Assembly (NCBI GenBank): GCA_951406725.2
Contig: OX597817.1
Location: forward strand, 111,042,001 to 111,106,000
Reading direction: 5' to 3'
Origin: Octopus vulgaris
Taxonomy: Eukaryota
Length of the DNA: 64,000 nucleotides
Each line of letters begins with the position of its first letter. Within the stretch, counting starts at the first letter, position 1. The translations under genes were made by a program, and so were the position numbers. The notes under the pieces are model-generated. The model had not been told where the DNA came from and did not search any database. It saw nothing but the letters and a program-made list of their open reading frames with translations. Shown piece after piece: positions 688-51,139 of the stretch.

Positions 688-3010
688 GTGAGAAATTCTA
701 AATCATTCTTGTTTATTTCTTTTAGTAGGTAAACATTAGCTTTATAACAAAATAGTATTCATGTTATCAGTTTTTTTCTCTCTTCGTTGCTTTTTTTAAC
801 CCTCCTTTTTAATTGCTAGTTTTATTCAAGTTGAAACCCATTACAAAAAAGCATCCCATTTAAGTTGACATGAACACACTGGTTAAGTATGATTGTTTTT
901 CAGATTTTATTTCTGTAGATCCATTCACATATGACTATAGAGACCAATATGGGATTCACAAGTCCAATCATAGACTAAGCATTTGTTGTCCCATGAGAAA
1001 ATGTGTTGGTTGCTTCATTCTACATTCATGTTTGTGTGGGCTGTCAGCGTTGGACTCCATCATATGTAATCTCTCTTCATTTGCATTATTTCCTAATGAT
1101 TTCCACTTACATGTATATATGTGCATGTGTGTTTATACATATGTGTAATGATGGTGATGTGTGTGTGTTCATACATGTTTACACATATTTGTATACCTAA
1201 TTATACACTTGTATATACATGCACATTCACACATGTATTTACAACTCATGTCAGCATGTAAACCTGCATTAACAATTACAGAAATGCAGATGAATTATAG
1301 TACCAATTAAATACTGTAGCAGTAGTAGTAGCAGCAGCAGTAATAGTTTTTTTTTAATAACCACTTTAATTTTATTAATTGTGCAGTACATAAAAGAATG
1401 ACATGAGTTTGAAGGACTATTACTTAATTTTAAGAAATGGAAGAAGCAGATGTGTATGTGTATATATATATATATATATATGGGTTTCTAGCACATATTT
1501 GCAGTATCAACAAGTGAATGTGGGATTATCACATGCTTACTCACTAATGCATATAACTGTATACAAAATATTTATGCAGATGTATGGGAATGTCACCTTA
1601 TCTCACTTGTGGCAGTATGAAAAATGAACATTAAAGAAAGTTAGAAAACACTTTCATCTTTGTAGGAAAGAGTCAGGAGGTGGTGGGTTCAAATTGTTTC
1701 CAGAATTACAGATGATTAGATCACTTAAAATATAAGTTTTTTCCTATTCAATTTCTTTGGCTTAACATTCCAGAAGCAGGAAAATTTGGTTTTAGTATTT
1801 GTTACTTGATATTATCATCATATGTATTGCTTTCAAATTCATTACCTTAAGCTGGAATAGATAGATTTGTTCAAGTTTATAATACAGCTTATAATACAGC
1901 AACTTTTTAGCAGTTTGTATCACTTTTTTCTGAATCACACATATCTAAAATAGTGCAATTTTCTTCCCTGTACAAATTACCCAATCGTTTTCATTATCAT
2001 TTGTTATTTTCATTCCCCGGAGCACACTCAGCCTTCTTTTGAGTTAACATTTTATTTGAAATAGACCCCACTTAGCTCATTACTCTGCAGTTATTTTAAA
2101 TTCTTTGTAATTTGTCACTGGAGTTTTAGATTATATGCATTACAATATTTATTTTGGCTCTGTGATCTGAGATTGAATCCTGCCAAGATCATCATTGCTT
2201 TCCATTCATTTGAAGTTGATAAAAAACAGAATCAATTTAAGGTGGTAGATTAATGGGATTGTAAGAATTCTAGACTTGATACCGTGTGGTGTTTGTTTCA
2301 GCTCATTGTGTTCTAAGTTAAAATCTTGCCATGGCTTACATGGGTGGTACACTTAATCACTCCCCCATTTTAACACCCCCCCCCCCACCACCAAGCATCT
2401 AAGGTACTTTTAATAGAATCCATTCTGTTGCAAGCATTTGGACTAGGTCACTGGATTGAGGATATTTTCCTTGTTTCTCTCACAAGTCTTGGAGGCACTA
2501 AAAATACTTCCTTCCCTTCTGACTGAAAGGTAATAAAAGTCACCACACACATTCTCAATGTCATTATTTAGTGAGTTTTCTGCTAAATAGCTAGTATTAA
2601 TTTTTTTCGTGGAAAAATCTGTACTTGATCTGAAAAATGTAGGTTAAAATATATTTTTGTATTCTGAAAATGTCATTTTTGAAAATTATTACATCATTAT
2701 ATTTGAATAGATATTGTTACATCAATTATGATTGCATGGTTTGATGTTTGAGCTAATGTAAAATGTGCATAATTTACATAATACTTAACATTCAATACTG
2801 CTGACAAGGTTGAATATCTGGTACAAAGACTATAAATTTAACACTTAGGTAACCTTCTCCACATATACACATACACTGGAATCATCTCCAGCTGATATGC
2901 TATTTATACATACATTGTTTATTCATTTCAATACTATTTATTTTTCATATTTTCTTTTATAATAATTGCATATAGCTTTTATCATTATAATGGTCAATGC
3001 ACATGCACAC

Positions 3011-3012
<2 letters not shown>

Positions 3013-3060
<48 letters not shown>
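3013..3060. repeat. (CA)n microsatellite
   Basis: Pure AC run; source of the spurious poly-HT ORF 2966-3196. Confidence 0.95.
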
Positions 3061-3062
<2 letters not shown>

Positions 3063-3360
3063 TTTTGGCTTTTGTGCTGCTCCGATTTGACAAATTCATT
3101 ATTTTCACCTTTCACAAATCTCAAATATCCTTTGGATCCGTACATTGTGTAGTGGTAGATAAATGGATGAAAAACAAATCTCTCTCAAGGTGCTAACCTA
3201 TCACAAATAACATTTATCTATTCTCTAATCAACTTAGTCTGTGCCATGTAAACTATGGTTTTTCTGCCTGGAGGCATAAAGAAATGCTAGCAAAGAATGT
3301 GAATATTTGTTGGTAGTCCAATACCTTATTCACTGGGTTCAACTGTTGTAAGCTACTATA

Positions 3361-3715
3361 TTGTTGTTTAGCCCCCTGTCAATCCTGGTCATTAAAATCA
3401 GTGACTACATTGTCCAATGTGTTAATTTTTGCTAAGATGGTAGGGTGATTTGGCTGGTTGTTTGTGTTCACATCTCCTTCATCAGCTTGTTACTCAAAGT
3501 ATCATTATCGTTTAACTTCAAGACAGTCAGCCTTGACTTGACTGATGTGATCAGAGAGCATCCCAGCCATGACCATCCTGTCATTTTCTTATAAGTAGAG
3601 AACCTTGAACCTCATTATCCAAAGTCCTTTTCTAAAATGAAGAGTAGAATTTGAGCAAATTTGACTGTTATTTCTACCAGGTCAAACTGTCACATAGAGG
3701 TTCCTTCATTGGTTC
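3361..3715 (-). mobile_element. Old abundant SINE-like family with (CAA)n tail; two partial copies
   Basis: Motifs ttgttgtttagcccc...cagccatgaccatc...tgttatttctaccaggtc...tagaggttccttcattgg. Related copies at about 22005-22215, 25270-25420, 25970-26195, 26470-26645, 30110-30300, 30660-31040, 33000-33370, 34620-34815, 39540-39720, 40800-40980, 44380-44560, 55210-55650, 59030-59200 and 61190-61390. Confidence 0.7.
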
Positions 3716-3850
3716 CTACAAAATGCATAAAATCTTCTGGTGACAATCACTATTATTCATCAGAGTTAAGTGGAGAAGTTTGGTTTGCTTGAAAGTTATA
3801 TAAACTTATTATATATTGAATATGGTTTTTCTTTTATAGTAGACGAGACA

Positions 3851-3930
3851 CAAGGGTGTCCATAAATTATCTTTACAACTTCCACGTTTATGAACTTCAA
3901 ATTGTAGAAGTAATTTATTGCCCCCTCCTC
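3851..3930. mobile_element. Tiny Tc1/mariner-type MITE relic
   Basis: agggtgtccataaattatctttacaa (3853-3878) pairs imperfectly with ttgtagaagtaatttattgccccct (3902-3926). Ends resemble CAGGGTGTCC-type Tc1/mariner TIRs. Confidence 0.55.
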
Positions 3931-4914
3931 TGTTTTGAGAAAAAATGTTCATAGCAAGGTAAGATTAGTTGAATACATGAGAAACCTTAATTATTACCAA
4001 TTTTATCTTGTGTTGTCATTGGTCAACATACAAACTCACTTCTTTTTATAAGTATATAGACATTTGTTGAATACATCTCATTTTATATAACATATGTGTG
4101 TTAAATATGTCTGTAAGAAACTAAGAGTGCTATGTAAAACATGCCATACAAATTCGAAACCTTCACCCCCACCTCTTTCTTACTAAATAAATAACATGAA
4201 TTTTGGAACTCCATTCTTTTTGAGGAAAAGCACATTGGGGAGAAGTTGTTAAAATTAAGAATAGTAAGTCTCGTGTACTAAAACAATTTGTTTTCTTTGT
4301 GTTGTCAAATCCACTATCCTTCACTCGCTGCTCTTGTGGAAACAGAAATATTTTCTTTAGTTTTTTTTTCCCTCCCCTTAAATTTTTCTCATCAGCTGCA
4401 ATAGAAAAGAAAATTCCCCATTTGACAAGAAAATCCAATACAAACTGTAAATTATTCTACTATGTATATGGTCCATTTATTTTTCAGGAAGAAATAAAAA
4501 TTCAAAAAGGGTTAGGTTTTTTTCCTCTTCTTTTTCCTTTTTCCTGTTCTATTGTTTTAGTGAATTTGCAGTCATAGTATTTCTGCTTCTCTTAGTCTTT
4601 CTTTCTGCCTTCTTTAACAAGGAATACTTTGGAGGTGATTTTTTTTACTTATTTATATTTGTTTTTGTTTAATTTATTTATGTTTTTTTTTTTTTAGGTT
4701 GGGGTTTAAATTCATGTCTAAAGGTTTTTTTAAAATTTTGTATAAGTATTGGTATCGCTGTATAGTTAAAAAGCTCACTTCACAACCATGTGGTTCTGAT
4801 TTCAATGCTACTGCAAGAAATCATGGCCTCATATCTTTTAGTGTAGCCTCAGGTTGACCAATGCTTTCTCAGTAGAATTTTGTGGATAAGTAGAAACGTG
4901 TTGTGTGTGTGTGT

Positions 4915-5157
4915 GAAGGTGCATAGCTTAGTGGTCAGAGTATTTGGCTCATGATCATAAGGTTGTGAGTTTGATACTTGGTAGCACATTGTGTCCTTGA
5001 GCGAGACTCTTTATTTCATATTGCTCCAGACTACTCAGTTGGCAAATATTGGTTGTACCTGTATTGCAAAGATCTAGACTTTTCACATTCTGTTTCACGG
5101 AACCTCTCTGAGTACTTTCTAAAGGGAGCGCCTGTCTGAGAAATACTCAGCCACTAG
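4915..5157 (+). mobile_element. tRNA-derived SINE, 3'-interrupted
   Basis: A-box tagcttagtggtcag, B-box-like gagtttgatac, body tgtgtccttgagc...ttgctccag. Related to copies at 15831, 52330 and 59785. Breaks off at actcagccact, just before the foldback region. Confidence 0.75.
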
Positions 5158-5395
5158 CGGTTGGAATAACTATCTAAGGGATAAGAATATACTTTATCAC
5201 TACCAGTATAAATTACTTCTGTTAACCCTGGGCATGGATATGCAAGCATAATATGCTCATAGGATATAGGTAATAACAAAATAAACAAGAGTTTATCAGG
5301 AATCAAATTTAAAATAAGCAGAAAATGGAGAAAACTTCTGATCAACAAACAAACTGACTACTATAGGTTATTATTTTTTAACACTAAACTTTAAC

Positions 5396-5516
5396 ATTGC
5401 TAACAGCTATTTCTACTAACTATGTCAGTTGGTGCTGCCAAAGAAAATTATGAGAATAATATTCGTCATCTTTTATAGCACATCTGATCTGGTACATGGA
5501 GCTTCATCAGGGTGAC
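5396..5516 (-). ncRNA. Degenerate type I hammerhead ribozyme motif (left arm copy)
   Basis: Minus strand reads gtcacc-CTGATGA-agctcc...gttagta-GAAA-tagctg-TT-agcaat; more decayed than the right copy. Confidence 0.55.
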
Positions 5517-6231
5517 TACAAATACATAAAATAAAGAAAGAAAAGAGAAAAGAACAGGGCCTCGAGATGAAAGAAGGCTTAATAAATTAGAATCATACCA
5601 TTTTGCAGTGTGAAGCTTGAAGTCAATGAGCAAATGAATAAACCAGAAAAATAATTGGTCGGTTAATCTTTTTTTAGGGGTACCGGGGTGTATAAATAAT
5701 AAGAAAATAAAACTAGTACTTAAGTATAACTGGAATCGCCAGTAAGTCTAGAAAAAGAATAGTACTTATGATTTCGTAAATAGTGATAATTAATATTTAA
5801 CCAAAAACATACCCATAAAGTTGTTACTTCATGGGTATCTTGGCCTTTGGTCAATTCCATTATGGACAACAGGTGGTTGGTCCCTAGAATATATCAGTAA
5901 GTACACTATTGTAACATCTTTATGGGTATGTTTTTGGATAAATATTAATTAGCACTATTTATGAAATTATAAGTACTATTCTTTTTCTAGATCTATTGGC
6001 GATTCCAGTTATACTTAAGTACTAGTTTTATTTTCTTATTATTTATACACCCCAGTACCCCTAAAGAAAGATTAACCCACTAATTATTTTTCTAGTTTAT
6101 TCATTTGCTCATCGACTTCAAGCTTTACACTGCAAAATGGTAGGATTCTAATTTATTAAGCCTTCTTTCCTCATCTCGGGGCCCTGCTCTTTCCTCTTCT
6201 CTCTTCTCTTCTTTTATTTTATGCATTTGTA

Positions 6232-6352
6232 GTCACTCTGATGAAGCTACATGTATCAGATCAGTTGTGCTATAAAAGATGACGAATATTATTCTCATAA
6301 TTTTCTTTGGCAGCATCAACTGACATAGGTAGCAGAAACAGCTGTTAGCAAT
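6232..6352 (+). ncRNA. Type I hammerhead ribozyme motif with extended stem II (Penelope-type)
   Basis: gtcact-CTGATGA(6238-6244)-a-gctac...gtagc-a-GAAA(6335-6338)-palindromic cagctg-TT-agcaat. Stem II is extended by atgt/acat, tcagttg/caactga and tgc/gca. Predicted cleavage triplet GUU at 6344-6346. Confidence 0.7.
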
Positions 6353-6449
6353 GTTAAAGTTTTGTATCAAAAAATAATAACCTATGGTAGTCAGTTTGTT
6401 TGTTGATCAAATGTTTTCTCCATTTTCTGCTTATTTGATATATATATAT

Positions 6450-6578
6450 ATCTGTAAATATAATATGTGACAATTATTCTGTAGCCATGATATGTCACAT
6501 ATATTTACAGATAAATTCCTCTATTTACGTAATATCGAGGTCTCTTTCATTCTTTTGTGTCTTACCATTTCTATCAAT
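6450..6578. mobile_element. Short inverted fragment of a second (TA)n-embedded repeat (possibly Penelope-type)
   Basis: atctgtaaatataatatgtgaca (6450-6472) is inverted against tgtcacatatatttacagat (6493-6512), with (TA)n on both sides. Confidence 0.5.
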
Positions 6579-7439
6579 ATGTATATATATATATATATAT
6601 AATGTACTACTGTTCCATGATGGTAAGATGGCCAAAAAAGTATTCCATCTGATTAGAGATAGATATATATTATGATTTCACTTAGGTATAGTGATGCTAA
6701 TCACCAGTTGTTAGAACTCAATGTAAATATATTTTAGAATAAAGTATAATTTATGTGGAGTAACTTTACATTAAGGAATGGGATGTACAATTTCCTGTAA
6801 TTCAGACTGCCTCATGGTTCCAGTAGACACAATGGAAATGCTGTTTAATGTCCGCCTTTCATGCTGTCATATATATATATATATATATACATACTGTTTT
6901 TAGTCAGACAAAATACTTCATGGGTATTAGTGATATCTTGTACATTCTAAGTTTAAACACAACTAGTGTTTACTTTGCCTTTCATTGCTCTTAGGTTAAT
7001 AAAACAAGTACCTGTCAAATAGTGCTATAGTATTTCATTTGATTAGATACACCTTTCTAGAAACTTGTGACCTCACCTGATCAAAACAAATCAAATTATC
7101 ATAATTCTAAAGAAATTCACAAGTTATTTTAATATATGTTGAACATGAATGTTGATTGAAAATTATGAAAGTATGTATAGGGGGTTACTATAAACGTTTC
7201 TATTGGCTATCTAGAAATAGTTTTATTGTACAGGTTATTATGATATTTGAGGTTCTGTTTGCTGTGTGTGTGTGTAATCAATATTTTTATGGGCTAATTG
7301 TATTGTAGGAAGTTAACTCATAACAATCTATATTTGCATATCACAGTTTCAATTCTCATTTGTAGCAAATTCATTCTTCTTGTAATATTGTGCTAAAGAA
7401 AGGCATGAACATGATATAATTTTCTGTTTGTTCATATAT

Positions 7440-7882
7440 TCATTTACTGGTTTCTGTCATTGAACAGTGGTTATCCTGGAGTGACCCACTTCAAGTGTTT
7501 TACTGATCATTTTGGCCCTAGTAATTACCCTAGTTTGATACTTATTTTATCGATTCCTGTTTGCTGAATAGTTAAGCTACATTTTAGACATAAAGGGCCA
7601 CAATTCAACACATCAGTTTACAATGATAAAATGCTAAGCATAAACATTGACATGAATACTGTCATTTGCACACATGTGCATGTGCATGCATGCATGCACA
7701 CACACACACACACACTCACAAATACAGGCTTCAACACAATTTCTGTCTTTCTAATAGCACTCACAAAGCATTAGTCAACCCAAGGCTATAATAGAAGATG
7801 CTTATCTAAGGTGCCATGCAGTGGGATTGAACCCAGAGCAATGTGGTTCTGAAGCAAACTTCTTAACCACGCACACAGCCAT
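7440..7882 (-). mobile_element. tRNA-derived SINE with internal (CA)n
   Basis: Minus strand ggctgtgtgcgtggttaagaagtttgctt...gggttcaatcccactgcatggcacctt. Family also at 4750-4900(+), 17110-17455(-), 22850-23000(+), 24770-25155(-), 28290-28460(+), 28885-29258(-), 53615-53770(-) and 54340-54490(-). Confidence 0.8.
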
Positions 7883-8170
7883 TCAAAAAATTGTTTTCTT
7901 TTTTAAATCAGATTAGTAGAAAAGGGTTCATTTTCTGTTTTTTTTTTTTTAAGGCAGTTTAATACAAAGACAAAAACAAGAAAGTATTATTTTATTATTT
8001 AAATAAAAGCCCTATACTATTTAAGATTCCGGAAATAATAACTTTCTCTCATTTACATGAAATCTCAGCTTGATGCATAAGAAAGTAGTGTCAAGATAAT
8101 GGCTAAAGCAAGAGACATCTTATTTAGTCATTCATTTTATTCTATGATTATTTTCATTTTCAAGAAGGTT

Positions 8171-8192
8171 CACGTGTCTAATAAATCACGTG
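8171..8192. promoter_or_regulatory. Tandem canonical E-boxes (CACGTG x2)
   Basis: CACGTG at 8171-8176 and 8187-8192 in unique, CpG-poor intronic DNA; function not demonstrated. Confidence 0.3.
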
Positions 8193-8934
8193 GTTTATGT
8201 TTATGACAGGTTTATATAAAAATCAAAGTTTATTCATATATTCTTGTCAAGCGACTCTATTACCCATAATGAAGAGGTGGTGCAAATGTACTAAATGGAG
8301 ATTATGTTCACATAAAGTGACTACACCACAAAGAAGGCTTGCACATAATTGCCATGCCTAATGTTGTGACTTTTGTCTATTTTTCAAGTCTGAGATTATT
8401 AAATGGCTTTATGTTAATCTTTTAACTTGTGTGTTATCCGTATGTGTAATATGTTAATAGAAGTAACTGTTTTATAATCGTTACAGTATTTTAAAAAATA
8501 CATCTAGACCTGTTAGAAAACTATTTGCTTTGTGATTATTGGATTATTTTCATGATTAAATTTTGATAGTTCCTGGTGGCTTTTTTTTCTCTTCAGTTAT
8601 TTCAAATTAATCCTTAGGTCTTAAGTCAATTTTGATAGTTTATGCACTTGATGATTAATATATAAAAAATTAAGGTGTTCTGAAGATATTCGATGCAAGC
8701 TTAGGCTTTCAGCTATGATTGGCATGCAAATCTCTTGGTAAAACTGTCTCTCTATGAGTTTCTTTTATCTTTTATCTCTTGGATAGCAGGCTTTCTGTCA
8801 GATTGCATCATTGCAGCAGGTGCTGGTGAAGATCTCTTGGACACCTCATATTCTTTTAACTTTGCTCCAAGGTTTGGTTTTTTTTCTCCTATATGAGAGT
8901 GATATATTTGCTTTCACTTCCAACAGTGTCTACT

Positions 8935-9790
8935 TCTATGTAGATGGTACCATTCTTCATTCCTCCTTAACCTTATGCATCTGAAAATCATCCACATGTA
9001 GCTTAGTCACTGCAAATCAAATCTGCATTGACTACTCATAGAGTGAACTCATTGACTACTACATAAAGTGAACTCAGAAGCATCATACTATGTGGTCATA
9101 CCAATCTTACCTCCTTTCAACAGCATAAAAACACACTCACTTTATACAGTGAGAAAACATTATTGCACCCCATCTCACCCACTAAACATATACAGTACAC
9201 AACTAGAACTCTCATGAGCACATAAATGCTTGGCCTCACAATCTCTAAGGATCTTTCCTAGCAAATGAATGCCCTAACATAGTTAATCACAACTGTATCA
9301 CCAAGACTTGCTTTCCTCTTCAGGGTCAGAAAATGCTACTACTTGCTACAAGTTCCAGATAAAATTCACAAAGTACTCATCCCACCTCTAGGATATGCTG
9401 CTACATAGTCACAGATGTGTTAAACTATATTGAAAAAAAAGCAGCTCAGCTGATTGCATGAAGTTACTCACCAATACAGTTCAATGTTTGACCAACAGTC
9501 CTTCTGTATCCTCTTTTTTACTATTTCTGTCATTACTGCAGTGGCCTCTTCTCCATGGATCTGGTTGATCTCATGCCACCTCCAATTTTATTACATATAT
9601 TATGTCCATATCTCAGGTCCCACACTAACAACCACTATTTCCAAACCTTTCTCCCCAGAAAGTTGCTCCTTTGGAGTTTCATCCTTCTGTACATCCTCTC
9701 ACTGCTAACTTGCAGTTGCCTGAGAGGAACATTAACCATATCATTCTCATGGATCTTGAAAGGCTTATAAAAACTCTGAGTACAGCCCTA
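8935..9790 (+). mobile_element. Highly degraded CR1/L2-group LINE RT C-terminal fragment
   Basis: Stitched frames give YFCHYCSGLFSMDLVDLMPPP...YFQTFLPR, resembling the FYRYY.G.CS.EL..L.PP...SF.PRT thumb region. Contains a ~24-bp local duplication at 9026-9074. Confidence 0.55.
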
Positions 9791-10385
9791 TCCTTTGGAT
9801 TAGACCAATAATATTAAAAAAATAGAAATGAATGTAATTGAGTTTAAAAAGACTACATGAGAACATTTCACTAGAATCCTCCTTTTGCTCTTGTCTCTTT
9901 CCATTGCAATACAAATATAGTAACAGTTGTGACTGGACTAGTGTGGAAGATTAAAAATAGACAGACAAGTAATGTATAATTAATCAGGTAGAGTTCAGAA
10001 CTGTTGTTATAGCTTTAAATATAATAGAAAATATACTATCACAGTCTAATCACATTAAGTAATATCAGTTTTGGTATCTTGTAAAATTTGAAGATAAAAA
10101 GAAGGAAAATGGAAAGATAAAATTATATATATCTGATTAAAAATTTTTTTGAAATTTTTATGCAATTAGTTTCTCTGAGAATTGCGTTAATTACACACAT
10201 TATGAAAATGAACTATATAAAACATTACCACATGTATTGGTAAAGTACTGGTAACTGTCATTTGGAAATGTATGACTACTTAATTTACTTTCCATTGAAA
10301 GTTGACTACCTAGTCTGTATCATTGATGCCATTTCTCATCAATGCTGTTGTTTCTCTTATTAAAACAACCATTCACGAGTATACT

Positions 10386-10611
10386 ATCTCTTTACTACCC
10401 ACAAGGGGCTAAACACAGAGAGGACAAACAAGGACAGACAAACGGATTAAGTCAATTATATCGACCCCAGTGCGTAACTGGTACTTATTTAATCGACCCT
10501 GAAAGGATGAAAGGCAAAGTCGACCTCGGCGAAATTTGAACTCAGAGCGTAGCAGCAGACGAAATACCACTAAGCATTTCGCCCGGCGTGCTAACGTTTC
10601 TGCCAGCTCGC
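10386..10611 (-). mobile_element. Young full-length tRNA-derived SINE with TSD
   Basis: CpG-rich copy: gcgagctggcagaaacgttagcacgccgggcg...gagttcaaatttcgccgaggtcgactttgcctttcatcc. Flanked by direct repeat CGAGTATACT at 10376-10385 and 10612-10621. Confidence 0.9.
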
Positions 10612-12771
10612 CGAGTATACTGCTTTATGAAATATTAATATTGAAATGTTTTAAGACATTATAATGCCTTGAGTCCTTTTAACTTGGTGACTGTTTTGTA
10701 ATGCAACCTCTTGCAGAGCTCCATATCAAAGCTGTTTCAGCCATGACCCAAAGCATTGATATTTTTCATGCCTCTGTGGTGTTTACATGAACTAATACTT
10801 ACAGTTATGTTTGAAGTGGTTTTGCACAATACTTGTATTTCATTCTCCTGCAAAAAAAAAAAACTACTCCTTTCTGGAAGTGCAATGATATGTACAAAGA
10901 CTTTTTTTGTTTTTCCTAATTGCCAACTTGTTCCAGAAATGTTCATGATATAACTTGCAGTCACAAATTCATAATTATCACACCATTTCTCGTAGCATCA
11001 GTGTAGAAATCTGGACTTAAAGCAAGTTTTGTGCTAGCCATCTTAGTATTTTATGCTGAACCATCCTTTCATATGAAATGAAAGCAAGAAAATAACAATT
11101 AATGCACTGAGCAGTAAACTTAGCCCTGTTCTAACAGAATTAATTTCACACCTTCAGTCACCTTTTTAAAATTGTTTTCTCTTGTTAGATTGTGTTTATT
11201 AATGATGTTTCTTCCTGTCTTCCACACCATCTGCAAATGAACAATAAATACTGTAATTATCACGTTTTTACTTCCTTTGCCAAAACTATATAGTTCACAA
11301 TATGCAAAAATACAAGGAAATTTATAGTTCTAAGACCTATTCCTATTAAATTTCTTACAAAACATATGCATACATATTTATACACCCATGTGCATATGTA
11401 ATTTGTGAGGTCTTCTATCATGTAGTATCAAATCATTTGTATCATAAAACAAACAACTGGGTGTTGTCACAAACTGGGTTTCCATTTTGTGATTTTTATC
11501 TTGACAATCAGGTCTCAGCTATTTGCCCTGGCATTCCTTTTGTTGAAGTCCTGAAAACCTTTTGTAGTCTTACTCTATGACCATATTATCTAAATAAATT
11601 CTTTTGTGTGTGTGTGGGTGTGGTGGTGGGTGGGTGGTAATTTTGTCCAAAGTTTTGTGTTGCAAAATCTAACTCAGTATTTTGCATGTGCAATTTTATA
11701 TATTGTTTCTTGATAAAATGATAAGTGTTGTTTTCTTAGGACACAGCATTTGATTAGTAGCTGTTGATTTTGTTGTTGAATTTTATTTTCTTCTTGTTTG
11801 CTTTTCTCATATGCTATGGTTTTATTAAGAAAAATTAAGCTTGAATTTTATGGGAGTTTGACAGTTAATTTGTAGTAAGATTTTTTTATGGTGGAGGGGA
11901 GCTTTTCTCTGTAAGGTATTATTATCTGTTAAGTAAAAAAAAAATGCTTAAGCATGCTAAGTAGGCTTTGACAACAGAGTATTCAATGTTGAAAGGCATG
12001 ATTTTTACTAAGCAATATTAGCACTAGATATGATCCTTAGAATATGACACCTAAAGACTGAGAAGTTTAGAAGTCATGTAATTTTTTGATAGTACCTTTT
12101 GGAACAGAATTTCTGAACAGAAAGCAGATTGTATACTACTTGAAATGTGTTGTAGTAGTAGTAGTAGTAATAGCAGCAGCTCTAGTAGTTGTTGTTGTAT
12201 TATGACAGGCAGTTCTGCTCAAGTACAGTTACTAGAAGTAGTTCAAAACTAATCCACACATCTAGTGCATCTTATTATACACCGATGTATTTGGACTGGT
12301 GCCTTCATCTTGTTACAGTAACAACATTTTTATTGTACCTTTCACAGGTGCTTGTCGTAACTGGTAATTTTCCTGGAATTTCAACTCTATATTATATTCA
12401 TAGGCATAAATTGTTCTCATTCCATTGTCTATACTAGCAATATAATTAATTTTGTGTTAATTATTTTCCCACTTATGATGCCACTTGGTTTTTTCTGCTT
12501 GAACTAAAGTAAATATAAACTGACTGACCCAGGGAATGAGCATACACCCACAATATAACATTTGACATTTGACACTTGAAATCACTCTCCTATTGTCCTT
12601 AAAAATTATCCCTGGTAATTAGACAATGGATGGAGGATAATCTACCAAACACCCAAGGTTCAGTTCAAATACTGAGAATATTACCAAGTATGAAAATATG
12701 ACAGGCACCTGAAGAAGGCTGTTGATAATAGCAACCAAGAAAAAAACTGTCTGAAAAAAAAAAAAAATAAT

Positions 12772-13430
12772 AATCCTTTCTACTATAGATACAAGGCCTG
12801 AAATTTTGGTGGACGGTCAGTTACATTGACCCCAGTGTTTCACTAGTACTTATTTTATTGACTGTAAAAGGATGAAAGGCAAAGTTGACCTCAGTGGAAT
12901 TTGAACTGAGAACTTAAAGATGAACAAAATGCCACTATACCATAATAACAATAATGATGATGATGATGATCCTTTCTACTAAATAGGCACATGGACTGAA
13001 ATTTAGTGAGAGAGGGCTAGTTAATTTCATTGTACCCAGTGCTTAATTGGGATCGATAAAAGGATGCAAGACAGGATACTCAGTGGTACTTGAACTCAGA
13101 ATGTAAGGCCAAAAGAAATGCTGATAAGTATTTTGTCAGACACACTAATAATTCTGCCGGCTCATTGCCTTATAATAATAATAATAATGATGATGATGGT
13201 GGTGGTTTCAAAGTGGTTTTTTGCCACAAGGTCAGCCATTTTGGGGGATGGAATGAGTCAATTACATGGACTACAGTGTTGAACTGGTACTTATATTATC
13301 AACCCCGAAGGATGAAAGGTATAGTTGACTATACCTTGGTGGAACTTGAACTCATGACATCGCGACAGGTGGAATACTGCTAAGCATTGCGTCTGGCATG
13401 CTAACGATCCTGTCAGCTCGCCACCTTCAA
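12772..13430 (-). mobile_element. Tandem array of three SINE copies separated by (TAA)/(TGA) tracts
   Basis: Repeated aaggcctgaaattt...aaggatgaaaggcaaagttgacc...tttgaact blocks, all in the same orientation. Confidence 0.85.
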
Positions 13431-13443
13431 TAATGATAATAAT

Positions 13444-14235
13444 AGGGCTTCATTGTAGCTGCTCAGGATCAGTGTCTACCCACCAGAAACTACCAAGCAA
13501 GCATTCTTAAAAATGGTGCCAATCCTGCTTGCAGATTTTGTGGTACAGCCAGGGAAATAATTGACCACTCATCTCTGGATGCTCTATGCTTGCCTCAAAT
13601 GAATATTTGATGCCATGATAGTGTTGGTCGGTATTTGCACTGGTTCATATGTTGTTAGTCTGGACACCCATATGAGAAGAATTGGTGGGAACATAAGCCT
13701 GCCAACGTAGTAGAAAATAATATCACTTTAGTATCAAAACTGATCATGCTTTACAGACCAGTAGATCAGATATTGTGTTAAAAAACCATGCTGACAAAAC
13801 ATGTCTGCTCATAGAGAAGGTAAGAAAATATGAAACAGAGGTCTCAAAAATCTGGTATCTAAGAGCAACAACTGTACCTGTGATTATCATGGCTTTGGGG
13901 ACAACCCAAATGGCACTCTTAAACACTATAGCTAGGTACTAGGTTAATCCCAAGGCATCATAACTATACAAAAATTATTCTCATAGGTACGGCCTACATC
14001 CTAAGAAAGTTATTCTCAACTTGAAAATACCTGATTCTCTTAAAACTCTTTCAAAACTGAAGTATTAAAATTTAACAGTATCCTAATTCTCAGAGCGGAT
14101 GCCTTACCATACAATCACTGCTAATCATAAATGACACCCATATTAAAATGTCCAATTTGCTGTTACTTGTGGTCTCTGGGTGAGACTTGAAACTGCTCAT
14201 ATGAAACAAAGCAACAGTAACATGAACAAAAACAA
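13444..14235 (+). mobile_element. Degraded 5'-truncated R4/Dong-like RLE non-LTR retrotransposon
   Basis: Starts GFIVAAQDQCLPTRNYQASILKNGANPACRFCG, matching the 49524-50531 ORF. Shares the 3' motif ggtctctgggtgagacttg, and has (TAA)-like tracts on both sides. Confidence 0.85.
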
Positions 14236-15568: not shown

Positions 15569-15613
15569 AAAGGAATATATGCTGTAAAGGGTGAAGACAG
15601 TCAAGACATTAAG
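15569..15613 (+). CDS. Candidate 45-nt internal exon (KGIYAVKGEDSQDIK if coding; could be UTR)
   Basis: Strong acceptor tttttttgtttttgtttccag| and perfect donor AAG|GTGAGT. Length is divisible by 3, and only the phase-0 frame lacks stops. Confidence 0.6.
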
Positions 15614-31997: not shown

Positions 31998-32469
31998 TTG
32001 TGTCCTCACTACCATCAAAAACCACCACTACAATTGTGTCCTCACTACCATCAAAAACCACCACTACAATTGTGTCCTCACTACCATCAAAAACCACCAC
32101 TACAATTGTGTCCTCACTACCATCAAAAACTACCACTACAATTGTGTCCTCACTACCATCAAAAACCACCACTACAATTGTGTCCTCACTACCATCAAAA
32201 ACCACCACTGCAATTGTGTCCTCACTACCATCAAAAACCACCACTACAATTGTGTCCTCACTACCATCAAAAACCACCACTACAATTGTGTCCTCATTAC
32301 CATCAAAAACCACCACTACAATTGTGTCCTCACTACCATCAAAAACCACCACTGCAATTGTGTCCTCACTACCATCAAAAACCACCACTACAATTGTGTC
32401 CTCACTACCATCAAAAACCACCACTACAATTGTGTCCTCACTACCATCAAAAACCACCACTACAATTGT
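31998..32469. repeat. 36-bp minisatellite, 13 near-identical copies
   Basis: Unit ttgtgtcctcactaccatcaaaaaccaccactacaa, head to tail with no spacers; single-base variants in units 4, 6, 9 and 10. Confidence 0.97.
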
Positions 32470-33664
32470 TACATCTATATTTTCTCTTCTAAAATTGCCT
32501 TTCTTTTTGTTTTTTTCAAATACTTTCTTTATAATTATCATAAATAACCTGGAAGGGACAGATGAAATTAGTAGAGTGATGTGGAATGTAGTTATCGCTG
32601 ATGAAAGTGAAAAAAGAGGATTGATGAAAGCTGGGATTTGATATTTATTTTGCTTCTCTGTTTGTAATTTCCTCCATTACAGTGATCATAATAAAAACCT
32701 TAAATCTAGTTAGTCATGGGAGTTGAGTAAATTATTGGTTCCCTTAATAACCAATCCCTAGCTGTATCCATATTCTAAACGCTTCCTGTATTTAAAATCA
32801 TATAGTTAGTTGTGTGTGTGTGTGTGTTGCACTTACCATTTTATGATATTTTGATACCTAATCTTTGTGGAAAGGTATCCCTTAGACATTTAGCTTGCTT
32901 TTCATCAGAAATATGCACTCTAACTTCTGAATCACTCCCTTGATTCAACACATTTCCTAAACTGTATGATATATGAGCCTGTGATGATATCCCTACATTA
33001 TCAGTTGACCTGCTAGAAATAGCATCCAAATCATTCACAATTCATATTCTATTAACTCAAAACTAGATGGACTCTGGATAATGTAGTCAAAAATATGATA
33101 TCTAAAATTAGTTGGGATAGTCATTGCTTGAATGCCTTTAATCAAAGGTCTGCTATAGTAGGTCTACTCTCAAGCTAAACAACAACACCAGAAGTTCATA
33201 TAATTTCCTGTGTACTATTCTATGCCAGGTCTGATATCGCTATTCCCTCAAATGCCATCTTAAAATTAGAGACACTGGACAATGTATACACAAAATAATG
33301 AGTTGGGCATAGTTGGAATATCTTTAATCATATATTTTAATCATAAGTCTGCTCAATGTGGGTTAGCCTGTGGTTCACCAATGCTGACACATAGAGGGTT
33401 TTAGCTGTTGGAAAAGAAACAAAAAGTAATTAAAGTGACATTTAAGTAATAAATTTTGGTAAAAGTTTACATTATATAAACTACTAGTCCAAACATCCTA
33501 ATTGAGGTTATAACTTTTAGTTATGTTTATTATATTGTAACTAATCCCACAACCAACATTAAACAGCTGCAAAAATGAATTTCAGTTCTACAAAAAAATT
33601 CTTTTATGAAAATTTTTTTTGTATATATTAAATATGTATTATCTAACACACACATATACATACA

Positions 33665-36170: not shown

Positions 36171-37532
36171 TAGAGATAATATTGACATATAAAATAAAAA
36201 TTTAGTTTTATGTTATTTACTGTAAGGAGGATTAAATACTTAACTATAAATAATTATATATTTAGTTGAAGGGTTCCAAAAGGGGTCTCAGGGAGTAGCG
36301 TCCCTGCCTTCCTGAGCTAGTTTTCCACTACATTTCTTAAAAATCATGGTGGAGGCTTTGGTCTCGGGTCTACTCATGTTTAGAAACTGAGGTTTAGGGT
36401 GAGCAAGGGAATGCTCCCCGTAGAAAATCAAGCTCCAAAAAAGCCTCATAATAGCAAAGGAGAATGGGCACCAGCCAGCCCAAACTTTTATATAATATAT
36501 ATATATATATCATCATCATCGTCGTTGTTTAACATCTGCTTTCCATGGTGGCATGGGTTGGACAGTTTGACTGAGGGCATTTTAGTTTTGGATACATACA
36601 TTGTATCAGACTGGATTAAAATTACAAACCGTTATTTCTAAAAGAAGAGAATTAATCTTCTTTCTTATCCATCAAGCCCCATATTTATTGGATTCGGATA
36701 TCAAACTGATTGAAATGTAAATAAATAGATTAAAGATAAAGTTAATAGGTCTAGAAATTATAATCTTAATATCTAATCTTATCTAGTGTTTTATAATTTT
36801 TATATTTGTTTCCCTGTTATACATGGTTTAAATATCAGATTACCTTTCTAAGTTTCTTTTGGTTGGAATAATTTTTATTCACCATCATCATCACCATCAT
36901 CCACTTTCCATGCTGGCATATTGTTCTGAGATTATTTAATAATTTAAAATTTATTTTTAAGAAAAAAGTTTTCACGTGTAATATGTAGCTGTTCATAATC
37001 GCAGTGATTTTTTTTTTTGTGCTGTTTACAAAACGTGCAAATTATTCAAAATAAGTCATTTCTGAAGATTTACTACAACTGGTCTTGTCTGGCTTAATTA
37101 AAGTCATGCTAACCGTTCCATTGTTCATATCAGTTTATACTACATGAAAGCTTCCATTTTTATTTGTTATGCCTAACTGAAAATAGGTTAATGTGTTATT
37201 ATGTTGCTTTTGAAAAGTGAGTTTTCTAAATTTAAATGGAGGTTTGATGTTAAACCAGTCATTATAGTTTCCAAGATGATTATTATTATTATATAAATGG
37301 AAAGATTATTTATCCATATGAAACCAATTAATAAGAGTTATTAATGAAAGTCACCTCTAGCATTTAGCAGTTAATATTTTTGACTGCCTGATATGATTCC
37401 CTATTGAATACAATATGGAAGAGTGAGAACAGTCAATTCTTTTATGGTTGGCTGGGTATATCATAAGGCAAGGAAACAAGATGATATTTGCTTGTCTTGG
37501 CAGATAACCACAAATCTCAGTTTTATTATTAA

Positions 37533-37752
37533 CCCTTTCCTTACCAATCTGACTGAAACTGGCTCCGGCTCCGAGTACAAATGTCATGTTTACATAAGTT
37601 TTGAATTAAAATTTTCCACTGAACCTAAGTCACAATTTATGTTCCTAACATTAACTGAATGATGACTAAGTTATTTTACTAAATTCTTTGTTATATTTAA
37701 AGTAATTGAAAGGAACATAGAGCATCTTAAAATAAATACAGTAATGAAAGGG
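37533..37752 (+). mobile_element. piggyBac-type MITE (220 bp)
   Basis: TTAA TSDs at 37529-37532 and 37753-37756; TIRs CCCTTTCCTTAC / GTAATGAAAGGG. Confidence 0.9.
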
Positions 37753-38081
37753 TTAAGGATAGGGGAAAAAAAGTAAGGTTTGATGGTCCTGCTGGAATAA
37801 AAGGTGTCTGATATGAGTGGAATTCCAAAATGAGGAAATTCCTTTTGTAGATTGTGTTTATATTTGGATGCTGAGTTCTATAAAGCGCTAATATTTTGAT
37901 TAGTTATTGCTTTATGAGGGGAGGTCAGTAAAGAGACTAGTAACTTCTACCATTCAGCATTATTATGTAATAAAATAGACCCATTCTATAGTTGAAAGTA
38001 TTAGGTTTGGTAATAATGTTTGTGTGTGTGCATGCATGAATGTGGGCATGTACATGTATGCACGTGTGCATGTGCATGCAA

Positions 38082-39079: not shown

Positions 39080-39420
39080 ATATTGTTATACTTGGGGATG
39101 GTCTCATATTTTGCCAATTAAACATATACACTATATGTTTGCTCTTTATCTTAGCTTTATTATTATTATTTTTATTTCTTTGTCAAAGCTCTTTTGTCAC
39201 ACATCCTGTAACCTTTTCAGCAGCTCTTTATCCTGCACATCTGGTGAAGTGGACTAAGCAAAATAAAAGGAGACACTTGATATAAAGAGTGTTTAAGAGA
39301 TCTCAGGATGTGTGACAAAAATTCTTTGGCAAAGAAACAAAAATAAAGCTGAAGGAAAGACCAAACATTGTGCATATATTTAATCGACAAAATATGACCA
39401 TCCCCAAATATAACAATATA
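39080..39420. repeat. Imperfect inverted repeat (~120-130-bp arms, ~95-nt spacer)
   Basis: tattgttatacttggggatggtc...ttttgtcacacatcctg (39081-39208) mirrored by caggatgtgtgacaaaa...gaccatccccaaatataacaata (39304-39418). Confidence 0.85.
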
Positions 39421-41251
39421 TGTTTCAACACATGCTTTCGTATCAAGGATCTTGTAAAACAAATACATAAATGCAAATTAAAAGAGCTAAATGAAAGCAA
39501 AAACAAAAAATGTCATATTCTCATTTTATTGAATCTCCTGTTGTTTTTATTGTTTATTTCCTGGTCAGCTTCAATCCAGCTGACCTATGATCAAAAGTTT
39601 TCTACCTATAACCATCTTGTCTTTTTGTTTGTTTATTGTTTTTCTGTTTTTAAGACAGATGGGGAATGATTTAAGAGAGATTTGGCTCCTATTTGAGCAT
39701 ATGAAGGCTTCCTTATTGACTCTGTATATATATATGGTGTTTCCATAAAGTTACTTTCAATATATAGTTTTGTGTATAATGCTAATGTTCAGCACTGATT
39801 GTCTGTGTTTAAACATACACAAAATGTTCAAATGAATTAAGGTATCAAGCTATCTACTGCTAGCATTCCATCTTATTTCTGGCAGAATGCTTTGTCTCAG
39901 TCAGATTAACTGTTGAGAAGTAGGTACTATATAATCTGACTATGTTACCTGTGATAGTCTGGGTAACTATTCAGGGAAGAGATTTATTCCCCCATCTCTT
40001 TCACACCAAGAAACAGGAGCTAAGTACTAACTCATATGAGACACTGACTTTTTGGAGATGTACAGATAGGCATGTGTATGCATGCACACACACATTTACA
40101 TAGCTATAAAATGTTCTAGAAAAGATAACTACTTTGGCAAACATAATAGGGAACGAGAAATTTTAAATAAATATTCCCAAGTTTTCTAATATTTATAGAA
40201 TGTCAAGTAGAACCATTATATTTATTTTTGTTAATGTTTCTTTCTCCAAACTGATAATATAACTTTCCTTTCCTTTCTCAGGAATCTCTCTGTGATATAA
40301 CTTAGAATTAATGGGATACACTTGTGCAAAAAACACAAGATATAGTTTCCATGAATAGACAAAAATATCCATGAATAATCCACTGAAAGAATAAAGATTT
40401 AGCTAAATATTTGTGTTCTGTTTCTGCTCAGGTACTATTTATCTACAGTTTGGAGCATAGTATAGAAATACTAGTGAAAGCTGGAACATAATTTAGAAAA
40501 ATCAGTAAAAGATGAATGTCTGAACACATTTCTAATAGTAAATTCCATGCATCAACAGAGGAATCCTCTCCTTCATTGGTCCTTGGACTGAAAAATAACA
40601 TTCTTCTCTTGCCAAATATTACTGAATTTTTATCCTTCCCAACATTAACCTAAAGACAAAATAGTTTGCATTCACATACTGCTTTCTCTGTCATGGTGTT
40701 AGCTATTCAAAAAAGTTTAAAACTACCTACATTTTATTTGCCTAATTTTTTTCTGTCATTCTTGACTCTCACTTCTATGAGAAACACTATTCTACATGAT
40801 CATCCAACTTTCAACAAACAGCAGTCGTATATCCCTTAAATCGTAAATTACCAGTCTGAAAACTATGAAAACAAATCGGTTAATTGTAAGGACAATGTCT
40901 GACAAGATAGAATGGTCATGGTTTAAATATTTTTGATCAAAAGTCATTCAGACCCCTTTGGAACTGAGCAATAACAGCAACTTTGAAGTTGCTCAACAGA
41001 TAACAAATTTAGTATATCAAGTGATCATAAAAGTTTTTTTCTTTCTTTTAATGAAAAAGAAAGTCAGTTTTACTTTAGTTAAAGTTGATGCAGATTCAGT
41101 TTTGGTTCAGCTTCAAGTAAAATTTGCTACAGTTGTTAGAATTTGTGGTAAGTGCAAAACTGTGAAGGCATAAAAAATTTAAACTTTCACAAAACATTTT
41201 GTTATCCAGTATTTAATCATCATCATCCTTTTCATCATCATCATTGTTTAA

Positions 41252-41471
41252 CCCTTTTGTTACCGTATTTCTGTTGAGGTGCTCTGTGTTTCTTTCAATT
41301 ACTTTAAATATACCAAAGAATTTAGTAAAATAACTTAGTTATCATTCAGTTAGTGTTAGGAACATAAACTGCGTCTAAGGAATGGTGGAAGATTTTAATT
41401 CAAAACTTATAAAAACAAGACATCTGTACTCAGAGCCAGAGCCGGTTTCAGCTGGGTTGGTAACGAAAGGG
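41252..41471 (-). mobile_element. piggyBac-type MITE, second copy, nested in an RTE-tail repeat
   Basis: TTAA at 41248-41251 and 41472-41475; TIRs CCCTTTTGTTAC / GTAACGAAAGGG; reverse complement of 37533-37752. Confidence 0.9.
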
Positions 41472-41627
41472 TTAACATGCATTTTCCATGTTGGCATTGG
41501 TAGGACAGTCTGATAGGAGCTGATGAGTTAGAGGACTGTGCCAAGCGCCAATGTCTGCTTTGGCATGGTTTCATTGAACGTATACCTTTCCTAATGCCAA
41601 ATAGTAATGACCATGATGATAACAATG

Positions 41628-45772: not shown

Positions 45773-47072
45773 ATGTATGTATACACACATGCATACATAT
45801 TTTGATTGTATGTATATATGTATGAAAAATTGTTTTCTAGACTGATATATATATATATTAGTGCGTCTGTTTGTGTGTATGTGTGTGTGTGTGTACACAC
45901 ACACATATATATATATATACAGTGGGCCATTTTTTGTATAGCTATCTTTGTAAAGAATGGCAAACCTCAGCTACTTTTGATTTAGGAATGGAATTATAAC
46001 AAGCCATATGATGCCATGCCATGTTGTGCCGGTTACTTTCAAATCCTTTTCTTTTTTTTTTGTTTGTTTTTCTTTTGTTTTGTTTTACACCATGGTTCAG
46101 GGTGTATGTTAACCAGGGCATGCTAAACAAGTTTATTGAAAAGAGCATTTTTATAGCAGTCCAGTCAGTGTTGCTATAGTAAACAGTTGTAGCAGTTCAG
46201 GTATGAGCTACGTAATTACAGCAGCAGTAATAATAATAGTAGTAGTAAAAGTAGTAGTAATATTGACAACAGCAGCAGCAGCTGTTGTAGTTGAGTGGGG
46301 AAGAAAGAAAAAAGAGTCCTAACTACCTGTTCTTCAAGTTGACATCAAACAGTCCATTCATTTCATAGAGTGACAGTCTGCCTGTATGACATTCCTCTAG
46401 CGATTCTACCAGCTGCATTTATTTGCTATCTTTATTCCTTTCCTTTTTTCCTTCATTGGTGTTGTCATCGTGTCCATTCTTCAATGGAAATGAAGCATAC
46501 TGGAAGTACCGGGGGAATTGTTTTATTACCGTGTTGGAACTAGTTTATTTGAAAATGGAAGTCACCTTTATTTAAAACCAAAACTACACAAGGAGGGAAA
46601 TAACAGCTTCAGTACAAACCACCCAAGCATTTAAACCGGACTGAAGGGTGCAACAGCCATATGTGTATGAAATTTACATAAATGCATCTGCCTATCATTT
46701 TTCTTTATTTACTCTGGATTTAATTGACAGCATTCTTTTACAAAATGATGTATATATTGAAAAGAAATTCATAACTTGATTCATACTTTTTAAAATTATA
46801 TTTATTTATATTCTGGGGGTGAAAAAAATTCACTGAGTGAAAACTTCAAAAAGAAAAAAGATCAAAAAAAGAAAGAACAGAAAATGGATACTAAACTAAG
46901 TTCATTTTTAGTTTCTTTAGTAACTTTCAATTTTCTGATTGATTCTGTATCTTGATAAACAACTTCTGCCTATCCTGGGTCATCACTTGGGAGGAGACGT
47001 AGTCAGATTTGTCGTGTCTGGCTGGATTTTTACCTAGTCTTCAGTGGCCTGTGTAAAGGACATGGTCATGCT
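44600..47072 (+). promoter_or_regulatory. Candidate alternative promoter and long 5'UTR
   Basis: ~2.5 kb with no recognisable SINE, rich in GA, TG and AGC/AGT tracts, leading into an ATG-initiated exon. Confidence 0.35.
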
Positions 47073-47159
47073 ATGTTTGACTTGGACTACCTTCTAGAAC
47101 CAGGAATCTTTTTGCTGGGGATGGGGTTTGCATGTTATCTCTTCATTCAGGCTAGCCAG
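47073..47159 (+). CDS. Candidate first coding exon, hydrophobic signal-anchor N-terminus MFDLDYLLEPGIFLLGMGFACYLFIQASQ
   Basis: ATG at 47073, 29 codons, ending at perfect donor CAG|GTGAGT (GT at 47160, phase 0); ~16-residue uncharged hydrophobic stretch. Confidence 0.65.
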
Positions 47160-49334: not shown

Positions 49335-51105
49335 TATTTTATGTTTAACTTTTGCTTTGCATTTGCACAAGTTGGCTCCAAGTCTCACCCAGAGACCTCA
49401 AGAGACAGCAAGTTCATGTTGGTGTTATGCCTAGGGTGCCATATATTTAATGTTGTATGCAGTGTTTTTCTAGAGAATGTTTAAGAAACCATAAGAAAAT
49501 TGTGCTTGTTTTAAAATTTGAGATTACATAGTATTTTGCGTAGGATGTGGGCAGTTCCCATGAGCACTATCTTTTGAATTTCTACCATTTTGAGGGTTTC
49601 CTGGTATCTGAGCTAGGTAGCAACCAGCCCCTTCTGCTATCAGTCCTAGGGCATCTATGACAACAGGTATTGTTTTAGTCTTCAAGTTCCACATTTTGCT
49701 AATTTCTATTTCAAGATCTTTATATTTGCTCAGTTTTTGGTAGGTCTTGACAGATACGTTTATATTGATTGGGACAGTCATATCAATGAGGAGGCAAGAT
49801 TTTTGTCTGAAGTCTTTCAATATGATGTCTGGCCTATTTGCATCTATCTTTCTGCCATTTTGAATCGTGAAGTTCCAGAGGAGTGAGATGTGATCATTTT
49901 CAAGCACTGGAGGTGGTTTGTGTTCCCACCAGTTTTTATCATGGGGCAAGTCCAGGCTTTTGCAAATTACCCAGTGAATATATTCTGCAGCTCTGTCATG
50001 CTTGTTGAGATACTCTGTAGGCACAAGAAAACTACACATGGAGACAACATGATCAATGGTCTCATTTTGTTGTTGACATGCACGACATATTGTGGAGCAG
50101 CCGTTCTTTAATATGTTGGCCTGGTAGTTCCTTGTAGGTAGGCATTGATCTTGGGCTGCTATGATAAACCCTTCTGTTTCTGATTTTAAGCTAGAAGCCA
50201 TTAGCCATTGATGGGTAAGGGCTTTGTCAACATCGGCATTATTTGCTCTCTTTGGGCATTTGCCATTAAGAGGTTTTTCTTGCCATTTATCAGTCAGAAT
50301 ATCTAAGGCAGCTGTTTTAGCACGGGTTTTCATGCGCTTATCTTTTTCTGCACTTGTTTCTTGTATGTCTAATTCTGGAATTTGTTGTATTTGGAATTCA
50401 CTTAGATATTCCTTTGCCTGTTTTGTTACTGAGTATGATGCTTTCTTGTTTTCATGTTTTGAGACAAGTTTTAACATCCAGTCCTCTGAGTTTTTCAGGT
50501 AGGTGACTAGGCCAACTGTGGCAATCTTCATTGTTATTGCCAGTTGTAAAAGTCCATGGCCTCCCTCTTTTCTTGGCCGATAAAGTCAGTTTCTATCTGC
50601 CTTAAGGTGGTGCATTCTATGCATTGTCAACAGTTTGCGTATTTTTCTATCAAGATTACATATTTCAGTAATTGACCAGTTAATGATATTGAAACTGTAA
50701 GTCATGACATGTATGGCTAAAGCATTGATTGCTTTGATCCTGTTTCTTGCATTCAACTCTGTCTTCAGTATTTCTCTCACCCTTCTATAACATTCTCTTC
50801 TGATCCTTTCCCTCATCACTGCATATTTGATTCCGTCCCCTTCAATTACCCCTAGGTATTTGTAGCTCTCCGCTGGTTCTAACTCTTTTATGAGATTCTG
50901 CTGGTCAAGGTTAACATTAGATGTTTCTCTCAATTTTCCTTTGACAAGGGTAGCTTTTGCACATTTATCGAGGCCAAATTGCATCCTGATGTCATCACTG
51001 AATTGTTTAACAATTGTTAGTAAGCCCTTGAGTTGTTGGTCATTTTTTGGAAATAGCTTTAAATCGTCCATGTAAATGAGATGATTTATATTTTTATCAA
51101 ACATT
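49335..51105 (-). mobile_element. 5'-truncated R4/Dong-like non-LTR retrotransposon (RT + CCHC + restriction-like endonuclease), frameshifted
   Basis: ORF 50586-51104 has HLIYMDDLKL, FGLDKCA and YKYLG. ORF 49524-50531 has the CRACQQQNETIDHVVSMC zinc knuckle, KHD, NRPDI...LIDMTVP...KLSKYKDL. The 5' junction sits in (TAA)n at 51106-51140. Confidence 0.93.
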
Positions 51106-51108
51106 TTA

Positions 51109-51139
<31 letters not shown>

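Follow-up and report, generated by a model that had tools for sequence, protein, structure and literature searches.

The analysed window, a 64,000-nucleotide stretch of Octopus vulgaris DNA, contains an inverted repeat whose left arm (5312-5827) and right arm (5911-6436) were identical in 482 of 526 alignment columns (91.6%). The arms differed by 34 substitutions, 24 of which were transitions, and by 10 gap columns, and the spacer separating them measured 83 nt. These exact coordinates and column counts bear out an earlier note on this DNA, which had described arms of ~520 bp at ~90% identity around an 83-nt spacer. The foldback was by a wide margin the strongest of the 89 inverted pairs recovered at E<1e-5 in the 64-kb window, and no further copies of the arm were found there. 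On the plus strand, the foldback was predicted to fold into one duplex with an energy of −759.3 kcal/mol. The features of the locus and its flanks are collected in Table 1.

Table 1. Features of the foldback locus in window coordinates; the direction in which the copies are taken to be 5'-truncated rests on the strand of the hammerhead-like motif.
Feature	Positions	Strand	Evidence
tRNA-derived SINE lacking its 3' part, at the left end of the element	4912-5154	+	tRNA-like match at 4919-4988, below gathering score
Putative 3' extension confined to the left copy (no counterpart at the right)	5155-5311	-	collinear family contigs
Left arm, putative 5'-truncated copy, 3' end leftward	5312-5827	-	alignment, contig depth
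Decayed hammerhead-like motif of the left arm	5401-5513	-	CUGAUGA (5510-5504) and GAAA (5413-5410) kept
Spacer, putative additional 5' sequence of the right copy	5828-5910	+	collinear contigs
Right arm, putative 5'-truncated copy, 3' end rightward, adjoining an (AT)n run	5911-6436	+	alignment, contigs
U-rich tract 5' of the hammerhead-like core	6187-6231	+	seen in the sequence
Type I hammerhead-like motif	6236-6348	+	only match of the relaxed descriptor in the window
(AT)n run and an AT-rich repeat of very high copy number that includes a 70-nt hairpin (6446-6516)	6437-6620

Extent and decay of the two copies

The contigs of four out of 24 public runs (X1, X8, X13 and X18) were aligned to positions 4500-7500 at 80% likeness. 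The summed contig depth, which shows a dispersed family and is not a copy number, was 1,843-14,208 over the arms in X1 versus 54-84 over the unique flank, and the same shape was obtained for X8 and X13. Multi-copy depth together with divergent collinear contigs indicated a dispersed family in all four runs, and the family pieces were mostly ~83-90% alike among the matches listed. The family sequence continued beyond the outer end of the left arm: the summed X1 depth across 5207-5307 was 21,569, and position 5312 was crossed by collinear contigs from X13 (5155-5473), X1 (5206-5439) and X18 (5155-5316). Collinear contigs also covered the spacer together with the right arm (X1 5853-6092 and 5857-6156, X13 5841-6084, X8 5846-6037), and local alignment showed that the start of the spacer resembles the start of the arm, as a degenerate direct repeat ~85 nt apart.

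Judged from the sequence, the locus consists of a left copy (~5155-5827) on the minus strand and a right copy (5828-6436) on the plus strand, with their 3' ends directed outward. Their ends are unequal, the left copy being ~155 nt longer at its 3' end and the right copy 83 nt longer at its 5' end. The span of 5312..6436 assigned in the earlier note was exact for the arms, but too narrow for the element, as the left copy reaches ~5155 and the spacer is itself family sequence. The left junction at ~5155 was also present in a run labelled organism D (4947-5297, 6 differences). A second peak of depth was observed at 5311 (44,058 in X1 and 59,220 in X13), exactly the position at which the right copy ends; the peak at 5290-5340 could represent a conserved terminal block or one at which reverse transcription starts. 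Just upstream of the CUGAUGA core (5511-5542), the depth dropped ~13-fold over a span of 30 nt. Most family copies may begin just 5' of the core, a reading of the drop that is confounded by the U-rich tract.

Seventeen of the 19 family-variant rows listed in the arms, from a table with 281 further rows, were used for a tally, leaving out rows 6184 and 6186, which were single contigs in a skipped repeat. Five rows were non-majority letters shared by both arms, five were departures of the left arm only, five were departures of the right arm only and two were minority family letters. The arms were 93% alike when compared ungapped and closer to each other than to most family pieces. This pattern fits a single template copied twice, after which the two arms would have decayed neutrally and symmetrically.

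The SINE at the left end has further copies in the window at 15829, 52341 and 59977, and homology with them stops at ~5158; its missing remainder was looked for to the right of the element and was not found there. At the opposite end, the adjoining AT-rich repeat may have clipped the end of the right copy. No target-site duplication was found, the longest word common to both flanks being 6 nt and composed of A and T only. A joint in X13 (4542-6790), which skips the element together with the flanking repeats, was considered as an empty site and was not trusted, with only 24 letters on its short side.

The hammerhead-like motif

The letters CTGATGA...GAAA, on which the claim of two opposed hammerheads had been based, are present in each arm, with CTGATGA at 6238-6244 on the plus strand and at 5504-5510 on the minus strand and GAAA 90 nt downstream. 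The fold topology was, however, recovered in the right arm only, and the left arm gave no match to the relaxed descriptor, even when no helix I was required. At the sequence level, the locus holds a single hammerhead candidate, not two. In the right motif, the 5' half comprises CUGAUGA (6238-6244) followed by an extra A (6245), with a helix I of 2 bp. Helix II is an imperfect hairpin of 88 nt (6246-6333) closed by the G10.1-C11.1 pair, and the 3' half comprises a second extra A (6334), GAAA (6335-6338) and a palindromic helix III, CAGCUG (6339-6344). The predicted cut falls after GUU, at 6346/6347. In the left motif, the closing pair of helix I, the base of helix II (U at the C position) and the palindrome of helix III are all broken, and the letter at 5511 differs from that of the family majority.

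The energy of the helix II segment was −23.6 kcal/mol (z −2.9) in the right arm versus −14.4 kcal/mol (z −0.4) in the left arm. Among the 64 combinations of the six arm-variant letters in helix II, the best fold (−24.6 kcal/mol, z −3.5) included the family letter at 6265, and the median helix II z of the 32 combinations with that letter was −1.6; the combination made up purely of left-arm letters had a z of −0.1. The as-found descriptor had no matches in 60 shuffled windows and the relaxed descriptor had 0.15 per shuffled window; with the real 5' half held constant, 16 of 20,000 draws of random window sequence supplied the rest of the motif and none of 20,000 did so with a 6-nt palindrome, all of these null rates being optimistic for a descriptor that was fitted after the motif had been seen. 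Approximately 2% of the 20,000 draws overlapped the locus and were skipped, while still being counted in the denominator. The Rfam search returned no hammerhead match at 4000-8000 or at 6200-6400; this result was uninformative, as the textbook minimal hammerhead of a control (L011) was missed as well.

The motif was compared with the minimal and palindromic-helix-III type I hammerheads of metazoan Penelope-like elements (PLEs), as they are given in the accessible part of Cervera and De la Pena 2014 (PMC4209133). It shares with them the U-rich 5' flank (Fig. S3 consensus) and the CUGANGA-H core, and the same consensus fits in the G10.1-C11.1 pair, the palindromic helix III, the NUH triplet with H=U and the AU-rich 3' flank. 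The published descriptor also allows helix II to be preceded and followed by at most one extra base each, and the right motif has both. The descriptor in that part of the source specifies a helix II stem of 3-7 bp with a loop of 3-10 nt, in contrast to the 88 nt observed here. It further specifies a helix I of at least 3 bp; the right arm has 2 bp, and in the left arm the first pair is broken. The same source gives 2 bp for helix I in D. virilis. In some PLEs, an intron ends next to helix I, and an AG lies 6 nt 5' of the core in both arms; an intron end was nevertheless rejected here, because 98% of the family depth differs at 5516, which abolishes the AG.

The two halves of the motif were represented very differently in the family. 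The summed depth peaked at the CUGAUGA half (41,925 at 5511), where 99% of it carried the letter that closes helix I, whereas the GAAA half was shallow (627 at 5409; bin mean of 2,776 at 6318-6418). Most of the core-bearing contigs are therefore not collinear to this GAAA. Several contigs matched on either side of 5354-5471 but not that stretch itself, and others were collinear through the whole motif (X1 5284-5608, X13 5292-5557, X8 6088-6418, X18 6228-6367). The simplest reading of these sequences would be that many related subfamilies share the 5' half and that one of them has the long helix II.

A stronger version of this reading is only a tentative possibility: a PLE subfamily would have a working type I hammerhead in which helix II is the 88-nt hairpin and helix III a dimer-pairing palindrome of 8-10 nt, and the locus would be a dead head-to-head pair of that subfamily. 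If so, descriptors with a loop II of ≤10 nt, or with core halves 7-17 or 35-50 nt apart, would miss long-arm hammerheads, which may then be present in some of the PLEs that have been scored as ribozyme-less or 'half-core'. The 'HHR_half_core' Naiad elements, including Naiad_Ovul and Naiad_Esco, resemble the motif in having CUGANGA with a distant GAAA and a preference for (TA)n, according to the accessible part of Craig et al. 2021 (PMC8557442); their halves lie 35-50 nt apart versus 90 nt here, and no sequence match to them was found in that material. A long-helix-II motif, provided that it is conserved and cleaves, would broaden the hammerhead descriptor and make the question of 'half-core' PLEs testable.

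At 821-975 of L011, a low-GC metagenome contig, two minimal hammerhead motifs form a small pair joined head to head; the core of one is intact and that of the other is mutated. The pair has the 5' context of the family majority; L011 was retrieved with that motif, which makes it an analogue and not an independent proof. Related, tandem-looking copies lie at ~880-1080 of L061, which has the same sample accession. None of the 98 metagenome loci from the 17-nt motif scan aligned to the arms at E<0.01.

Origin of the inverted pair

The locus is probably a dead insertion, namely a head-to-head pair of 5'-truncated copies of the 3' end of a PLE, derived from one template, with a buried core and a passive role. 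Two 5'-truncated copies of the element's 3' end (its pseudo-LTR region) would have been made from that template and joined head to head, and the left (~5155-5827) and right (5828-6436) copies would then have decayed independently. A type I hammerhead-like motif whose helix II is long would have belonged to the terminal repeat, and the right copy is the only one in which this motif can still be recognised. Membership of the PLEs is the best reading of the dispersal, the outward 3' ends, the unequal ends and the match of the motif to the PLE hammerhead consensus. These features uphold the inverted-pair origin suggested in the earlier note, with the exception of its coding side, as no PLE ORF could be linked to the family.

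The comparison with EN+ PLEs pointed in the same direction. The inverted pseudo-LTR pairs in the accessible part of Craig et al. 2021 (PMC8557442) are likewise head-to-head, 5'-truncated copies with outward 3' ends, an extension at one end and one end at (AT)n. According to the parts consulted of PMC8557442 and PMC8969392, EN+ PLEs are found 5'-truncated, with an inverted and likewise truncated copy joined at that end and with an extension at one end, and some clades have a (TA)n bias. Here, an inverted truncated copy adjoins at the 5' end and both 3' ends face outward; the one-sided extension is ~155 nt versus the usual 30-40 of EN+ PLEs, and the right end was possibly clipped. Hammerhead pairs on opposite strands, 100-700 bp apart, are reported in the accessible part of PMC4209133, and inverted PLE stubs with opposed hammerheads had already been described; here, unlike in those pairs, the fold survives in a single copy. 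Recently active Penelope families are reported for O. vulgaris in the available part of PMC13282606.

The protein searches did not supply the link to reverse transcriptase and GIY-YIG that the earlier note had anticipated. The six frames of the arm matched no Pfam family, although a 3'-end fragment need not hold an ORF; one arm frame had no match among 1.84 billion proteins, and two frame segments had none in a 5.8-billion set. A likeness by eye between the antisense frames and the C-terminus of GIY-YIG was dropped as unsupported, as was an almost open frame that starts at the ATG of position 6251. T-rich strands have few stops by chance. None of six arm motifs was present in the supplement of Craig et al. 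(PMC8557442), a text in which matches may be concealed by line breaks. The arm also bore no resemblance to the portion of the Naiad_Obim 3' end with which it was compared (PMC8557442).

The missing protein link leaves room for a rather doubtful alternative, in which the repeat is not a PLE but, for example, a foldback/TIR DNA element or an unclassified repeat, present as an inverted pair or duplicated locally in inverted orientation, and the likeness to a hammerhead is partial or accidental. The lack of an Rfam hammerhead adds to its case, as do the 34 occurrences of CTGANGA on both strands of the window, the rate of the relaxed descriptor in shuffled windows and the poor representation of the GAAA half in the family contigs. 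The Rfam result loses its force with the control hammerhead that was missed too, and the depth peak on the CUGAUGA half and the low chance rate for the 3' half speak against an accidental likeness. TIRs flank an internal region, whereas here the spacer continues one copy in the 5' direction and the ends are unequal, and no target-site duplication was found; a TIR or foldback DNA transposon was rejected on its unequal termini and on the same missing duplication. Animal non-LTR retrozymes, as described in the accessible part of 10.64898/2026.07.22.740005, are tandem arrays of head-to-tail units, every one of which carries a type I hammerhead; a retrozyme was rejected because the two copies lie head to head here and the window has no third copy.

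The arm-spacer-arm foldback could instead replicate as a non-autonomous unit and so disperse 500-bp hairpins ready-made, an account that we consider improbable. It would explain why the inner-arm depth, summed over both arms, was 1.9-2.7x the depth of the spacer bins in the three DNA-type runs, but a gradient of 5' truncation yields the same ratio. Record 21 of X18 (5661-5850, from another locus, with 15 differences and the family letter at 5685) follows the window for 23 nt beyond the central junction, which is less than the 31 letters required for bridging. Conversely, at least one of the listed contigs exits the spacer into sequence unlike the left arm (record 14 of X13, or record 7 of X1 and record 28 of X8), and this exit holds whichever way the coordinates are read. 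The junction evidence rests on the 32 contig pieces listed, in addition to which 21,620 exist.

Read-through transcripts and the surrounding window

Under the preferred reading of a dead PLE pair, the orientation of the copies has consequences for any RNA read through the locus. Both motifs point outward: a plus-strand transcript makes the left, antisense arm first and the intact right motif second, and a minus-strand transcript makes the antisense of the right arm first and the broken left motif second. When plus-strand prefixes ending at 6300, 6360 and 6440 were folded, the inter-arm duplex took in all of the core bases made by then (7 of 7 and later 11 of 11), and 351 of 377 adenosines were paired. 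The hammerhead fold (−21.9 kcal/mol) was 10.6 kcal/mol above the best fold of the isolated right segment, in a model that leaves tertiary contacts outside. If the region were transcribed through, the antisense arm would emerge first, and pairing of the sense arm with it would give a duplex of ~500 bp in which the core is buried. In that case the locus would serve as a passive ADAR/dsRNA substrate, with neither cleavage nor a switch. In any PLE insertion of the head-to-head type, transcription reaches the antisense arm ahead of the ribozyme, and this common architecture should silence its own ribozyme instead of working as a switch.

Long duplexes formed by inverted repeats are the usual substrates of ADAR. 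The predicted folding supports the earlier proposal of a long duplex in read-through RNA that would suit ADAR. Hyper-edited inverted repeats, including those of a lizard Penelope, resemble the locus in having a long, near-perfect duplex from neighbouring inverted copies, as set out in the accessible part of Porath et al. 2017 (PMC5625713). The same part reports the lizard Penelope repeats to be heavily hyper-edited and hyper-edited inverted-repeat loci to be common in octopus (4.4 per 1,000 loci). By this analogy, a passive edited duplex at the locus would be plausible and ordinary. A>G plus T>C changes were found at 69 of 181 variant places in X18, 85 of 234 in X1, 82 of 241 in X8 and 81 of 236 in X13; X18 is an RNA run by guess and its contigs come largely from other loci, so these counts say nothing on editing here.

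The earlier note had gone further and proposed a folding- or editing-dependent switch in the host pre-mRNA, in which the ribozyme would cut unless masked; this reading is very improbable. The right motif does keep all of its core bases, exon-like plus-strand segments (15569-15613 and 47045-47159) make a host transcript on that strand possible, and the left junction recurs in the organism D run. The antisense precedes the sense, however, with a duplex of about −759 kcal/mol set against a hammerhead fold of −21.9 kcal/mol. Each RNA contains a single sense motif, the left one having decayed, so that no dimer can form in cis. In the accessible part of PMC4209133, a single copy of a minimal hammerhead showed no cleavage in vitro, and the PLE hammerhead of the anole cleaved only with the element's protein (PMC11167929); PLE hammerheads with a short helix III are reported to need dimers or protein (PMC4209133, in its accessible part, and PMC11167929). 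If editing were so dense that it opened 500 bp, it would probably change the five core adenosines as well. The arms decay symmetrically, and no host gene was found. On the folding model, a regulatory switch is unlikely because the antisense-first duplex forms, one sense motif is present per RNA and the editing would alter core adenosines. Within a literature search that left most subscription papers outside, we found no work joining hammerhead ribozyme, A-to-I editing, antisense, retrotransposon and intron, and, among the papers listed, no description of an octopus hammerhead. A chimeric foldback created by assembly is scarcely credible: none of the 32 contig pieces listed has 31 letters to the left and 31 to the right of the central junction, but an artefact predicts near-identical arms and is argued against because private changes occur on both arms, which differ at 34 positions and 10 gap columns. 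The locus is probably ordinary retroelement debris and at most a passive dsRNA substrate, and the long-helix-II variant is the one lead that it offers.

The intronic placement given in the earlier note was examined with crude exon scans of the window, in which no flanking exon was identified. The two exon-like plus-strand segments have strong acceptor and donor signals, and a donor-like site lies near 690; exons there would suggest that the element lies within a long intron whose transcript has the intact motif in the sense direction. Neither the best exon candidate nor 864-1145 had homologs. When the 53 ORFs of the window were compared with Pfam, only a LINE reverse transcriptase exceeded the cut-off; it belongs to a stop-interrupted LINE remnant on the minus strand (49524-51110, RVT_1, E 6.9e-07). 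Several broken, coding-looking frames on the minus strand at 8700-9800 had no Pfam match. A second and older self-complementary stretch lies at 39080-39419 (70% over ~350 columns). The segments 37529-37756 and 41248-41475 form an inverted pair of 228 nt, 85.5% alike and 3.5 kb apart, and could be the ends of a DNA transposon. A tandem array of a 36-nt unit, with ~15 copies at 98% identity and open in several frames, occupies 31998-32540.
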